Shown here one piece after another: positions 46,699-59,645 of a stretch of 64,000 nt of DNA. The stretch lies in assembly GCA_946221385.1 (NCBI GenBank), contig CAMIGX010000002.1, positions 10,824 to 74,823 of the forward strand, written 5' to 3'. How positions within the stretch are numbered: position 1 is the stretch's first letter; the number at the start of each line of letters is the position of its first letter. Position numbers and translations under genes: made by a program. This stretch comes from an uncultured Propionimicrobium sp. (GTDB taxonomy: Bacteria; Actinomycetota; Actinomycetes; Propionibacteriales; Propionibacteriaceae). Below the pieces are notes generated by a model. The model did not search any database and was not told the DNA's origin. It saw only the letters and a list, made by a program, of their open reading frames with translations.

Positions 46699-47451
46699 GT
46701 GAATGACTGGATTGACGACGACGAAGACGACTTCCTCTCCGCTGGCTTCGGCGGAAAATCTGACGACCAAAGCAACGACGAAAGTCCCACCGAGCCACCC
46801 GCTGACGGCGGCGAGCTCGCGATGGACGAGGAAGGCTGGACCCCCGCCGCAGGTTTCCCCGACGGCACCAACGCGGTGCGGCTCTGGGCCGATGAGGACG
46901 GCAATCTGAGCAAAGTTCGAGTCTCACTGGCTTGGAAAGAAAAGCTGCGCAACAGTTCGCTTTCGACCGCTTTCATGATCGCGTTGACCTATCTCAACGG
47001 CTGGTACCAGTTCGGCAGCCTGGACGAGGGTGACGTCTACGACGACGTGCCCGATTCGACTTCCAAGCAGCTGCTGTCTGCCGAGGCGTTAGCAGCCCAC
47101 CGCCGCGCCACCACTGAACTTCACCAGCGCATCATGGACACCCCTGGTCCGAACAGCATCGTCAAGGGAAGCCCAGCTAGCGCCAGCGATTATGACGGCG
47201 CGGTGACGGTGACCCTAGACCCAAGCGGACGAGCCTATCGCGTCGATTTTGACGAGGAATGGCTCGAGAATGAAGCTAACTCGGCAGCTATCGCTCGTTC
47301 GGTGATGAACTGCTATCGCTGGGCCAAAGCGAAGTGGCGGCCACCGACGGTCGAGCTCACTGAGCGCGGTGAATTACTGCGCGAACAACGCAAGCTGAGC
47401 AAGGAATTGGACGCGATGTTAGCTAATGGCGTCCAGATCTCTCGGGGCTGA
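46699..47451 (+). CDS. cassette 1 protein A: acidic protein with YbaB/EbfC-like C-terminal region
   Basis: GTG start with a CAGGAGG RBS. N-terminus MNDWIDDDEDDFLSAGFG shared with A2/A3. C-terminal ...SDYDGAVTVTLDPSGRAYRVDFDEEWLENEANSAAIARSVMNCYRWA resembles the YbaB/EbfC consensus G.V.V.V.G.G..V.ID..L..D.E.LEDLI.AA.N.A. Confidence 0.6.
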   Translation: MNDWIDDDEDDFLSAGFGGKSDDQSNDESPTEPPADGGELAMDEEGWTPAAGFPDGTNAVRLWADEDGNLSKVRVSLAWKEKLRNSSLSTAFMIALTYLNGWYQFGSLDEGDVYDDVPDSTSKQLLSAEALAAHRRATTELHQRIMDTPGPNSIVKGSPASASDYDGAVTVTLDPSGRAYRVDFDEEWLENEANSAAIARSVMNCYRWAKAKWRPPTVELTERGELLREQRKLSKELDAMLANGVQISRG

Positions 47452-47544
47452 TGACCGATCAAAGGCCACAATAGAGATTGCAAGCCCTTGAACGCATGAC
47501 TCGGCGACCAAACGTCGAGCGTACCAACGTCACGAGGAAACGCG

Positions 47545-48867
47545 ATGAGCCAATTTCCGTTCGAAAAGCCAGCTAACGACCCGCAGCGCGCTGCCGAAAG
47601 CGGCGCCACCGGGTACAACCGTGAAACCGATGACGAACTGCGCGACCTCGAGCTAGGCGAAGGCAATATCAACCCCGGTTCGCAACGCAGCGGCAGTGGC
47701 GCCGGCGGCCCCGGCGGCATGATGCCGCCAATGATGGGCATGATGGGCCGCGGCGGCGGCGCGGGTGCCGGCGCCGGCGCTGGCGGCGCAGGCGCGATGA
47801 ACGCCGGCATGATGGGCGCGACCGCGGGCCGGGCTGGCACCGTCCCAATGGGCGCGGCAGGCGCGGGCGGCATGGGCCCCGGCGGCGTCGGCGCTGGCGG
47901 TATCGGCTCAGGGGTCGGAGCAGGTGGCATCGGAGCCGGTGGCATTGGCGGTGTCGGCGGCCTGGGCAATTTCCCGCGCACCGGCGGCACGATCGCAGCT
48001 GGCGCGTCCGGCTCAGGCTATTCGCCCTATGGCATCAATCCTGCGACCGGAGAGCCCTGGAAGCCGTCCGATCCCGGCTACCCGCCGATCGGTGGCATCG
48101 GCGCCGGCTATACCCCGCCGAGCTTCACCCCTTATCAGCCTCGCGATTTCAGCTCCACTGGCGTCGGCGGCATCAACGGCTCTATGCCTAGTGTCACGCC
48201 CCCCAATTTCAATGCCAACACTCCCGGCGTGCAGGCACCGAATATCAATGGCGTGCAAGCTCCCAATGCGAGCGGCATCAAGCCCCCGTCGGCCTCTGGC
48301 ATTGATTCGCGGACGGGCCTGCCAATCGACCCCAAGACTGGCCTGCCAATCGACCCCAAGACGGGATTGCCGATTGATCCGGTCACCGGCAAGCCATTCG
48401 ACCCAAACGCGCCTGGCGTCGACGGCGTGAATCCGGCGACCGCCCCGATTTCAGCACCAGCCGGCGGCCCGTCAGGCGGACCCGCGGGCGGACCCAGCAT
48501 CGCAGGTCCTGGCGGTGGCCCCGACAACAGCTACAACGTCGACACCGCAGATCTGGATAACACCGGCAAGCATTGGGATGCGTTGGGTGACCAGATGCGG
48601 CAGATCGAGCAGCAGATCGCTCAGTTGGTCGTTGCTGCGGCAGAATTCGGGCTAGTAGACGACCCTGCCGCAAACTATGCCGAGGCGCAACGCGAAGCGA
48701 ACGTCTCGGTCTCTCGCTCGGCGAACAACTTCGCGACTAATGCGTCCAACCTGGGCGCTTCGTCCAACAGCTATGCCGACGCAGAAGCTACCAACACCGC
48801 TGCTGCAGCTGCCACATTGGGTGGCGGCGGTGGCGCTGGCGGCCAGCAGACTTATTCGATCAATTGA
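47545..48867 (+). CDS. cassette 1 protein B: Gly/Ala/Met/Pro-rich low-complexity protein with IDPKTGLP tandem repeats
   Basis: Conserved N-terminus MSQFPFEKPA...AAESGATGYNRETDDELRDLEL, a long G/A/M/P-rich middle, four 8-aa repeats, and a conserved helical C-terminal ~100 aa (...TGKHWDALGDQM...AAEFGLVDDP...). Confidence 0.65.
   Translation: MSQFPFEKPANDPQRAAESGATGYNRETDDELRDLELGEGNINPGSQRSGSGAGGPGGMMPPMMGMMGRGGGAGAGAGAGGAGAMNAGMMGATAGRAGTVPMGAAGAGGMGPGGVGAGGIGSGVGAGGIGAGGIGGVGGLGNFPRTGGTIAAGASGSGYSPYGINPATGEPWKPSDPGYPPIGGIGAGYTPPSFTPYQPRDFSSTGVGGINGSMPSVTPPNFNANTPGVQAPNINGVQAPNASGIKPPSASGIDSRTGLPIDPKTGLPIDPKTGLPIDPVTGKPFDPNAPGVDGVNPATAPISAPAGGPSGGPAGGPSIAGPGGGPDNSYNVDTADLDNTGKHWDALGDQMRQIEQQIAQLVVAAAEFGLVDDPAANYAEAQREANVSVSRSANNFATNASNLGASSNSYADAEATNTAAAAATLGGGGGAGGQQTYSIN
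48301..48396 (+). repeat. 24-bp coding tandem repeat (IDPKTGLP unit, 4 copies incl. degenerate ends) in B1
   Basis: ATCGACCCCAAGAC(T/G)GG(C/A)(C/T)TGCC(A/G) units read directly from the sequence. Confidence 0.6.
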
Positions 48868-58546: not shown

Positions 58547-58547
58547 T

Positions 58548-59645
58548 CTATCCGTTTAACACGTTGCCATTTTGATCGACTAGCACGAGGTCGCCCCGAT
58601 GGTAGATCGACATCGCGAAGCCATCTTGATAGGCCACGACGTGGGAGAGATAGCCTGATTTGTCGATTGGGAAACCGGCAGTCGCAAACTGCTCTAGCCG
58701 GGCATTGAACTTTTGCTTGTCGACTGAGTTTGTCGTCAAATAGCCGCTCGGGATGCCAGCAGGCATCTTGGACGCCAGAACTGGGTCCCAAGTGAATGGA
58801 TCTTGCTCCGGGGCGATCTGCACTGCCGGCCAATCTAGATTCGCCCGGACTGCCAATTGCGCCCCACATTTAGCCCGCACGCACGAGCTCGCCGTCACCG
58901 CGTCACCGCCCGAGGCCAATTCGAGCACCGCCGCTTCGATGCCCATGTGCTCGCTGATCTCAAGACTCGCGGCTACCAGCCCGTCCCAGGTCGTCAGCTC
59001 TCGCGTCTGGCCATCTATGACGTAGCTGGGCCACGCTGACATCGCGTTCGTGTTATATCCAGTGTCGCAACCGCCGGCGAAGATCGGGGTGCCGTCATTC
59101 AAAAACAGCATGCGCGCAGCTCGGTACTGGTCCTTTTCACACGCAATGCTGTCAATGAATTCTTGGAAGCGGCTCAGGGCTTCTTCGGTCACGTCATGGT
59201 TTTGGTAGCCGGGACGTTGCAGACCGGAGGCTCCTGACTCGTCAGCGTCGAAGGGATGCTTGGTCAAGTAGTGCTGCCCGTCGCTTTCCAGCCAGTAAAG
59301 CTCGAGCCAATCGACGGTCTCCCAGCGGTCTTGCGATAGTGGCCCCGCGCGCCATTCCATCGCTGCGATCTGGCCGTTGGGCACTTCAGTCTTGAGTTGG
59401 GCCCACTGTTCGGTCAGCGAACCGGGCTTCTTTGAGGGGCCGAAGAAATAGATCGCCCACGCTGCGGCTGCGAGCAGCAAGACCAACACGATCGCGAGGA
59501 CGAACACCAACGCCTTGTTGCGTTTTTTCGTAGGCTGGCCCTGCTGGGGAATCTGAGGCATTGGACGGTCCTGGCGTGGCGCGAAGCCGGGAGCTGGACC
59601 ATGCCAACCTTGCTGTTGACCAGGATGGGGCGCATTTCCGCTCAT
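58548..59645 (-). CDS. cassette 3 protein D (membrane protein, divergent paralogue)
   Basis: Pro/Gln-rich N-terminus, KKRNK plus TM helix, and conserved motifs TEQWAQL...AAMEWRAGP, WLELYWLE, LTKHPFD. Stop codon is 1 nt from the C3 stop (convergent). Confidence 0.55.
   Translation of the reverse strand: MSGNAPHPGQQQGWHGPAPGFAPRQDRPMPQIPQQGQPTKKRNKALVFVLAIVLVLLLAAAAWAIYFFGPSKKPGSLTEQWAQLKTEVPNGQIAAMEWRAGPLSQDRWETVDWLELYWLESDGQHYLTKHPFDADESGASGLQRPGYQNHDVTEEALSRFQEFIDSIACEKDQYRAARMLFLNDGTPIFAGGCDTGYNTNAMSAWPSYVIDGQTRELTTWDGLVAASLEISEHMGIEAAVLELASGGDAVTASSCVRAKCGAQLAVRANLDWPAVQIAPEQDPFTWDPVLASKMPAGIPSGYLTTNSVDKQKFNARLEQFATAGFPIDKSGYLSHVVAYQDGFAMSIYHRGDLVLVDQNGNVLNG

Follow-up and report, generated by a model that had tools for sequence, protein, structure and literature searches.

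Among described systems, the closest to the locus reported here are the Esp-type substrate triads of type VII (ESX) secretion, EspA/C/D and EspE/F/H/L, which to our knowledge have been described only in mycobacteria; the mycobacterial espACD operon lies unlinked from the genes of its machinery. In these triads EspD, EspH and EspL, which are YbaB-like, are the putative chaperones for EspA/EspC and EspE/EspF, and in Esx, PE and EspC proteins the export motif follows a published rule of placement after helix 2 (PMC6109436). Here we analyze a 64-kb stretch of DNA from an uncultured Propionimicrobium sp. (hereafter the window), in which twelve open reading frames (ORFs) form three tandem cassettes of four genes, with A, B and C on the forward strand and D convergent to them on the reverse strand. 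The array fills positions 46699-59645 between the gene for UDP-glucose 6-dehydrogenase (udg) and pgi. We regard it as reasonably probable that each cassette encodes a type VII (ESX)-style substrate pair together with its own chaperone and a cell-envelope partner. An earlier reading of the letters of this stretch (the original prediction) had held the locus to be unassignable and had noted tentative YbaB-like and WXG-like resemblances. These resemblances proved consistent across many homologues, and by such consistent remote homology A-B-C fits the scheme of a type VII substrate pair plus YbaB chaperone (EspD/EspC/EspA-like); overall, the earlier interpretation is partly supported. The features of the array and its flanks are as follows, in window coordinates.

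46699-47451, forward strand: A1, 250 aa; N-terminal tail rich in acidic residues, 17 of the first 50 aa being D/E, then a YbaB-like domain; Pfam YbaB_DNA_bd, E 3.5e-3.
47545-48867, forward strand: B1, 440 aa; conserved N-terminus, Gly/Ala/Met-rich and Pro-rich low-complexity regions, C-terminal Esx/EspC-like helical hairpin, YADAE motif.
48884-49771, forward strand: C1, 295 aa; WxG protein (IDSWQGTASNAY); Pfam WXG100, E 1.6e-4, and EspA_EspE, E 5e-3; exact product found in the protein collection.
49857-50966, reverse strand: D1, 369 aa; Pro/Gln-rich cytoplasmic tail, one transmembrane helix, ~290-aa extracytoplasmic alpha/beta domain, conserved Cys.
51121-51858, forward strand: A2, 245 aa; YbaB-like.
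51933-53312, forward strand: B2, 459 aa; YSDAE motif.
53331-54215, forward strand: C2, 294 aa; WxG protein; Pfam WXG100, E 8.6e-5.
54228-55340, reverse strand: D2, 370 aa; membrane-anchored protein.
55489-56250, forward strand: A3, 253 aa; YbaB-like by Pfam (E 0.053) and paralogue alignment.
56319-57629, forward strand: B3, 436 aa; FEAAE motif, differing Pro-rich middle region; Pfam EspC, E 0.31.
57650-58546, forward strand: C3, 298 aa; WxG protein; Pfam WXG100, E 5.8e-4.
58548-59645, reverse strand: D3, 365 aa; membrane-anchored protein, stop 1 bp from the C3 stop.
47707-48293, forward strand: 587-bp identical tract, copy in B1; gene-conversion tract matching 52095-52681.
52095-52681, forward strand: 587-bp identical tract, copy in B2, found by exact-match comparison with B1.
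48312-48365, forward strand: 24-nt (8-aa) tandem repeat in B1, 2.2 copies.
52689-52837, forward strand: 24-nt tandem repeat in B2, 6.2 copies.
45300-46652, forward strand: left flank, UDP-glucose 6-dehydrogenase (udg), identified by its Pfam domains.
59777-61450, forward strand: right flank, glucose-6-phosphate isomerase (pgi).

The A, B, C and D proteins are either unnamed or annotated as 'hypothetical protein', and their matches in Pfam and NCBIfam all stay below the curated thresholds. Nevertheless, C1-C3 all matched Pfam WXG100 over the same region, residues ~107-150, with E-values of 9e-5 to 6e-4. Across the C family of 31 members, 12 matched WXG100 and 8 matched EspA_EspE (best E 1.6e-5), and no competing family appeared. 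The top PDB profile match of C was the ESAT-6-like protein MAB_3113 (4i0x_B), aligned on the WxG. All nine C homologues examined display the pattern W[QGS][GD]xxAxxY, in register with the WxG of both the profile and 4i0x_B, and W126 and Y134 are invariant in the 31 sequences of the family. Judging from the profile alignment, from which the hairpin is taken, C would carry its W-x-G at the turn of a predicted helix-turn-helix. It should be noted that the scores of C1-C3 lie below the cut-offs, both for WXG100 (PF06013; 20.5-23.2 bits against 27.3) and for TIGR03930 (22.9 against 44.85), as do those of C1 and C2 for EspA_EspE (PF18879; 16-18 bits against 27). At 276-355 aa, C is also longer than the ~100 residues typical of WXG100 proteins, and its C-terminal half is conserved family-wide, with an F-Y-x-R-T motif. 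Two weak PADLOC matches of C1 (E >1e-3) resemble generic coiled-coil matches; PHROGs gave no match for the cassette proteins, and the two resources together returned nothing relevant that would place them in a defence system or a phage.

The B proteins consist, in order, of a conserved N-terminus, a Gly/Ala/Met-rich segment, a conserved GINPATGxPWxPSDPG motif, variable Pro-rich repeats and a C-terminal domain of ~100 aa. This last domain matched WXG100 in seven of nine homologues (best E 8e-5) and T7SS_ESX_EspC (PF10824) in three of the nine (best E 6e-4, short of the curated threshold). Its top PDB profile match was the ESAT-6-like protein MAB_3112 (4i0x_A), aligned over its full length with an E-value of 0.054. 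A [YF]xxxE motif stands directly after helix 2 in every one of the nine homologues, two of them having F in place of Y, and this placement fits the published rule for Esx, PE and EspC (PMC6109436). The WXG100 score of the B2 C-terminus, 12.1 bits, is below the cut-off. Unlike a WXG100 protein of ~100 residues, B measures 338-459 aa, with the hairpin of ~100 aa embedded as its last quarter.

The A proteins begin with a tail holding 13-18 D/E as against 0-2 K/R in the first 50 residues, in which a W-x-D-D...[FY]-L-A-A motif is conserved. Pfam YbaB_DNA_bd was matched by 10 of the 12 A members (best E 5e-5), with rival families absent. Neither A nor D, used as single sequence or as small profile, gave a meaningful result in sequence searches of the PDB. 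The location of a predicted YbaB-like fold beside a putative substrate pair is the arrangement seen with EspD, EspH and EspL. By contrast, A does not fall within the YbaB/EbfC DNA-binding family (PF02575), against which its members score 14-21 bits, below the 25.5 cut-off, and have 233-290 aa against ~100 aa. It thus differs from the YbaB/EbfC nucleoid-associated proteins in being ~2.5 times longer, in its strongly acidic N-terminus and in its place below the Pfam threshold. Furthermore, the genes of the latter are usually linked to recR/dnaX, whereas A adjoins Esx-like genes.

The D proteins start with a cytoplasmic tail rich in Pro and Gln, followed by a transmembrane helix, flanked by KKR, at approximately residues 55-79 and by an ectodomain of ~290 aa. 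The ectodomain was modelled, at predicted local distance difference test (pLDDT) values of 70-90, as helix-plus-beta-sheet modules with invariant cysteines. No meaningful match to D was obtained in Pfam, NCBIfam, PADLOC or PHROGs, the top match being a sub-threshold NCBIfam anti-sigma-factor model (D2, E 1e-3). D sits where relatives of the cassette have a co-operonic lipoprotein, and these lipoproteins are mutually related. D is their positional analogue and possibly their remote homologue. The D1 gene has a GC content of 52.9% and a third-codon-position GC content (GC3) of 59.7%, as against a GC3 of 70-80% in its neighbors, with D2 and D3 intermediate.

The layout of the cassettes is regular. 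The starts of C1 (48884), D2 (55340) and D3 (59645) were refined through paralogue alignment and called proteins. Within each cassette A and B are separated by 68-93 bp and B and C by 13-20 bp, and ~150 bp lie between D and the divergent A that follows; in relatives the B and C genes overlap by 4 nt. As stated in the original prediction, the A genes have GTG starts with GGAGG-type ribosome-binding sites (AGGAG/GGGAGG), and the D genes share a start context, TGGAG...ATGAGCG. The stops of the convergent C and D genes are 85 bp apart in cassette 1, 12 bp in cassette 2 and 1 bp in cassette 3. No terminator-like structure was found between them (49771-49857, 54215-54228 and 58546-58548), and their transcripts probably overlap at the 3' ends. 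A scan for promoters and terminators gave a lower count of sites than in shuffled sequence and is therefore uninformative.

The homologies of the genes, their motifs, synteny and pattern of recombination are direct observations, and the folds are established at modest confidence; the scheme that they suggest may be outlined as follows. B would take the role of EsxB, PE or EspC, presenting a C-terminal helix-turn-helix and then the export motif [YF]xxxE. C would take that of EsxA, PPE or EspA by virtue of its WxG, and would form a helical bundle together with the B hairpin, a pairing to which the 4-nt overlap of the two genes in relatives and the correlated divergence of the B hairpin and C lend indirect support. 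A may act as a cytosolic, highly acidic YbaB-fold chaperone that stabilizes B and/or C prior to export, in the manner of EspD/EspH/EspL. B would supply the signal for export by a type VII machine whose genes would lie elsewhere in the genome. D would be inserted by Sec, leaving its ~290-aa Cys-containing domain outside, and, like the lipoprotein of relatives, would probably be the cognate partner of the B-C complex after export, in its docking, its retention or in self-protection. Gene conversion would keep the 5' half of B near-identical and the B 3' half-C-D portion would be exchanged as a unit, giving rise to three tandem specificities.

Each of the four families is clearly homologous across the three copies, with amino-acid identities far above chance. 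Pairwise, the A paralogues of the window are 47-55% identical. B1 and B2 share 90% and B3 ~60% with either; C1 and C2 share 70% and C3 ~37% with them; D1 and D2 share 54% and D3 ~33% with them. This bears out the earlier claims that four gene families recur three times, with cassettes 1 and 2 close and cassette 3 the most diverged. At the nucleotide level, cassettes 1 and 2 align by blastn across 2.6 kb at 76%. The identical tract, previously put at ~590 bp, measures 587 bp, the longest exact match between B1 and B2, and its presence in surroundings that are ~76% identical points to recent gene conversion between the two genes. The 24-nt repeats, which encode 8-aa units resembling IDPKTGLP, do vary in number as had been claimed. 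Beyond the difference between B1 and B2, the B2 of L006, a contig from another sample, is shorter by 48 nt, that is by two units (443 against 459 aa).

The tract of 587 bp cannot be bridged by short reads, many metagenome contigs end within the B genes, and one MEGAHIT contig, L013, holds only two cassettes. These observations raise the concern that assembly has inflated one or two genuine copies into an artefactual array of three. Outside the tract, however, the cassettes differ from each other by 24-65% at the nucleotide level. Moreover, contigs from other samples, 99.1-99.98% identical to the window, bridge each junction with unique sequence on either side: L002 and L003 cover window positions 48153-52681, L006 (99.1% identical) covers 48179-55736 and L007 covers 52932-56513. 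From L006 alone the gene order reads C1-D1-A2-B2-C2-D2-A3, and L007 continues into B3. Two further contigs, L001 and L012, are 100% identical to the window, which shows them to be the same assembly and not independent of it. In L013, B1 is joined to B2 through the 587-bp tract, and precisely the 4.4 kb skipped there is present as a separate contig, L003, in the same sample. Given this co-occurrence, the two-cassette form is most probably a repeat collapse, and less likely a genuine deletion variant, as far as the contigs indicate. With its junctions bridged in this way the array holds up, and an origin of the three copies in assembly is hardly credible.

To describe how the locus evolves we compared five cassettes domain by domain, those of the window and those of the sister lineage represented by contig L010. 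Identities range over 82-97% for the N-terminal half of B, 46-98% for A, 32-85% for the B hairpin, 30-75% for C and 29-56% for the D ectodomain. B1 and B2 are 97% alike, against 90-91% to their own positional orthologues; this points to concerted evolution, in keeping with the identical tract of 587 bp. Outside the tail, identity between A2 and its orthologue A2x is 98%, as against 31-42% in the downstream block that runs from the middle region of B through its hairpin to C and D. On this sequence comparison, the B middle/3' half-hairpin-C-D block has been exchanged as one unit between the sister lineages. Together with the gene conversion in the B 5' half, this agrees with the original view of a diversifying locus. 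Divergence of the B hairpin tracks that of C across ten cassette pairs (Spearman 0.88-0.90, p <=0.001), whereas no such relation holds for A and the N-terminus of B. Throughout, the ratio of non-synonymous to synonymous divergence (dN/dS) is 0.1-0.4, always <1, with dS saturated for most pairs. In the flanks, L010 and the window share amino-acid identities of 95% (argS), 92% (udg) and 99% (pgi), with a dS of 0.08 for pgi (59777-61450) and of 0.56-0.64 for argS and udg (42730-46652). This inequality suggests a recombination boundary at the array, from a recent event. A PemK toxin gene and a small antitoxin-like gene are found between argS and an HlyIII-family gene in L010 (2648-3216) and L011 (2128-2678), whereas in the window this position (44365-44513) is taken up by a spacer of just 149 bp.

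A pattern of conserved 5' and variable 3' regions resembles that of polymorphic toxin loci, and one may ask whether the cassettes form a polymorphic effector-immunity array, in which exported B-C, or C through its conserved C-terminal half, attacks the envelope of neighboring cells, D confers immunity and the three copies represent three specificities; a type VII-like export would still be needed. Consistent with this, D evolves fastest, its orthologues and paralogues sharing 29-36% as against 92-99% for the flanking argS, udg and pgi. The wholesale replacement of B 3' half-C-D, with A2 (98%) and the B N-terminus (91%) kept, points the same way, as does a copy number of three in the window, two in L010 and one in more distant relatives, one of which, L114, has two tandem D-like lipoprotein genes. 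Yet no toxin family was detected in the cassette proteins with Pfam or NCBIfam, nor anything relevant with PADLOC/PHROGs, and the C-terminal half of C is conserved across the family instead of being polymorphic in fold. An ectodomain of ~290 aa is large for an immunity protein, orphan immunity genes were not seen, and the cassettes L106 and L108 have no D-like gene. In several genera a single cassette occupies a syntenic housekeeping site, and the dN/dS values give no evidence of positive selection. We deem an effector-immunity array unlikely.

The differing number of Pro-rich 8-aa repeats among paralogues and strains would also suit a variable surface structure, such as a fibril or adhesin, in which B, by means of its long Gly-rich and Pro-rich repeat spacer, spans the wall and is displayed, C caps it or polymerizes with it and D anchors it to the membrane, with diversity driven by host immune or phage pressure and not by a specificity pairing. 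The conserved cysteines of the D ectodomain, and the occurrence of the host lineage in human-associated-looking samples (one relative's contig is labeled 'human oral metagenome' and another relative is an oral taxon), are compatible with such a role, and EspC reportedly forms filaments of the envelope. The B sequences, though, possess neither a Sec signal nor LPXTG or another wall-anchor motif, and their Gly/Met-rich part is among the most conserved segments (82-97%), which is unexpected for an exposed antigen. A surface structure is, in our estimate, quite unlikely.

In argS, udg and pgi, which flank the array, identity to the nearest species representatives, Propionimicrobium lymphophilum, Brooklawnia and Luteococcus, is no more than ~70-77%. 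This places the host in a Propionibacteriaceae lineage without a close species representative, and not in Corynebacterium, to which a nearby LGFP-repeat gene might point. A word-index search of 5.8 billion proteins recovered A (five clusters) and D (two to three clusters) in this species group only. A profile search with C among 1.84 billion proteins gave 31 representatives, nearly all of 250-355 aa, the exceptions being a protein of 201 aa and a multi-stretch match of 4340 aa. Three of these representatives, annotated as 'hypothetical protein', belong to Propionibacterium sp. oral taxon 192 F0372. Scanning with the A alignment returned no relatives from genomes and six loci from metagenomes, in which C alignments yielded none. 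Searching the udg loci of 80 named relatives with A-D by tblastn gave zero matches, and in Propionimicrobium (L026, L029) and Brooklawnia (L017) no cassette intervenes between udg and pgi, which are separated by a few hundred bp. The distant A homologues match the A of the window with E-values of 1e-19 to 1e-47, and those of B and C with 1e-8 to 1e-24. The relatives' loci are organized as follows.

L100: argS-A-B-C-lipoprotein-DUF218-pgi.
L104: argS-udg-A-B-C-lipoprotein-pgi.
L109: argS-udg-A-B-C-lipoprotein-DUF218-pgi, with a second B-C-A set 8 kb off (3-2555).
L097 (oral taxon 192): A-B-C-lipoprotein.
L108 (oral taxon 192): A-B-C.
L102: B-C-lipoprotein-A (8898-12254).
L114: A-B-C, then two tandem D-like lipoprotein genes (12911-14972).

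A single A-B-C set with a lipoprotein gene thus stands at the same argS/udg-pgi site in L100, L104 and L109, from which it follows that the site is old and the array a lineage-specific amplification; the earlier description of the array as 'inserted' between core genes is in this respect misleading. Across relatives the udg-pgi interval varies in copy number, from the three cassettes of the window to the two of the sister lineage. The altered orders and duplications in L114, L109 and L102 indicate that rearrangement and duplication of the cassette recur in the family. The organism of the window has in addition a fourth, diverged A-B-C cassette elsewhere (L106, 8050-10939, and L107), without a D gene, whose proteins measure 290, 320 and 312 aa and which adjoins phoU and a two-component system. 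In L108, A-B-C is followed by a convergent membrane-anchored protein (11112-11927, reverse strand) that is not D-like and whose N-terminal motifs (DGDT...LLGVDAPE) look, by eye, of staphylococcal-nuclease type.

Several points weigh against a type VII-style assignment. All the Pfam and NCBIfam matches fall below curated thresholds, and the PDB profile matches have E-values of ~0.04-0.05. The Esx-like hairpin of B is C-terminal, whereas it is N-terminal in known substrates. The correlated divergence of the B hairpin and C could, owing to the adjacency of the B 3' end and C, reflect shared recombination blocks and not co-evolution. Comparisons of D with the relatives' lipoproteins by hhalign gave E-values of 0.024 and 0.01 and a probability of 2-4%, too weak to demonstrate homology, although the alignment with E 0.01 is co-linear over 235 columns. 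Finally, neither an FtsK/SpoIIIE-type EccC gene nor other type VII core genes occur among the scanned ORFs of the 64-kb window, and type VII core genes are likewise absent within 10 kb at nine cassette sites (on one side only where the contig ended). Given that espACD is also unlinked from its machinery, the lack of nearby machinery does not contradict the putative export.

The same sub-threshold matches and the absence of type VII genes near any cassette would be accommodated if the locus were non-secretory: A would then be a genuine YbaB nucleoid-associated protein, B and C its coiled-coil or low-complexity partners in the cytoplasm, with a role for instance in condensates or the cell cycle, and the WXG/EspC similarity mere helical-hairpin noise. 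The location of one cassette near crgA, pknB, pbpA and rodA is compatible with this. Against it, three independent lines agree on type VII, namely the YbaB matches in 10 of 12 A members, the WXG100/EspA_EspE matches of C, and the WXG100/EspC matches of B along with its invariant [YF]xxxE, and no rival family ever recurs. Furthermore, strongly acidic A proteins fit DNA binding poorly, and the gene for an exported lipoprotein or membrane protein lies adjacent or is coupled in translation. We judge a non-secretory role very unlikely. The case for a type VII-style substrate pair with its chaperone lies in this consistency over many diverged members and three gene families, each single match being sub-threshold. 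A further possibility, which we entertain only tentatively, is that of a hitherto undescribed cassette family confined to Propionibacteriaceae in which an Esx-like pair, one partner of it fused behind a long low-complexity region, a YbaB-fold chaperone and a hypervariable envelope-anchored partner constitute a modular system of recognition or antagonism whose specificities can be exchanged, and which might work without a canonical type VII machine. If so, WXG-like pairs would either leave the cell by a new route or have a role outside secretion.

Elsewhere in the window, a gene for a secreted coiled-coil and LGFP-repeat protein (40656-41678, reverse strand) is split by a premature TAA at 41046-41048 into ORFs of 209 and 129 aa; contig L015, from another sample, has GAA at this position and an intact gene of 340 aa. 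A 504-aa ORF (34247-35761, reverse strand) contains a DUF222 domain (E 5e-17), a domain often linked to HNH endonucleases in actinobacteria. The sole Rfam match at the gathering threshold is a single tRNA gene (23268-23338, forward strand).

Our literature search found no work connecting Propionibacteriaceae or Cutibacterium with WXG100 or type VII proteins. If the type VII-style reading is true, the arrangement of YbaB chaperone, YxxxE partner and WxG partner would be older and more widespread than thought, its bearers including an oral taxon and the source of a human oral metagenome contig, and the cassettes would offer a simpler system for studying how YbaB-fold proteins handle type VII substrates. 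They would also constitute a modular, diversity-generating locus that may lie behind recognition or competition at the level of strains, possibly in the microbiomes of skin and mouth.

In comparison with known systems, the cassette shares with polymorphic toxin/immunity loci (LXG, Rhs, CDI) a conserved B 5' region homogenized by recombination, a variable 3' module exchanged along with the downstream gene, and diverged tandem copies whose number differs between lineages. It differs from them in having no recognizable toxin domain, in a variable module that covers three genes, in a putative immunity gene, D, that is large, extracytoplasmic and convergent, and in its conserved chromosomal position as opposed to a mobile island. 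The WXG100 pair MAB_3112/MAB_3113 of M. abscessus (PDB 4I0X) resembles B and C in that the two genes are adjacent, and in relatives overlapping, that C has a WxG and B a C-terminal YxxxE signal, and that the B C-terminus and C find their top profile matches in the two chains of this very heterodimer. The differences are that these matches have E-values of only ~0.05, with neither protein at a Pfam/TIGRFAM threshold, that C is ~300 aa long with extra helices and a conserved C-terminal region, and that the hairpin makes up only the last quarter of B.

With the mycobacterial espA-espC-espD and espE-espF-espH (plus EspL) genes the cassette has in common a longer WxG protein (C, comparable to EspA/EspE), a partner whose C-terminus is a helix-turn-helix followed by YxxxD/E (B, comparable to EspC/EspF; PMC6109436) and a small YbaB-like protein (A, comparable to EspD/EspH/EspL; PMC6109436). 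The three Esp genes are co-transcribed away from the machinery genes, an organization that A, B and C would share. On the other hand, the similarity to A, B and C is sub-threshold only, and the order A-B-C is the reverse of espA-C-D. B, of 340-460 aa, has its hairpin behind a low-complexity region, as against ~100 aa in EspC, and A begins with an extended acidic tail that contains a D-D-x-F/Y-L-A-A motif. The cassette also adds a fourth, envelope-anchored gene, and the host is a monoderm member of Propionibacteriaceae displaying tandem amplification and module swapping. Set beside these systems, the cassette is an undescribed and taxonomically narrow variant of the type VII substrate-plus-chaperone theme, distinguished by the unusual architecture of B, the orphan D and its modular diversification.

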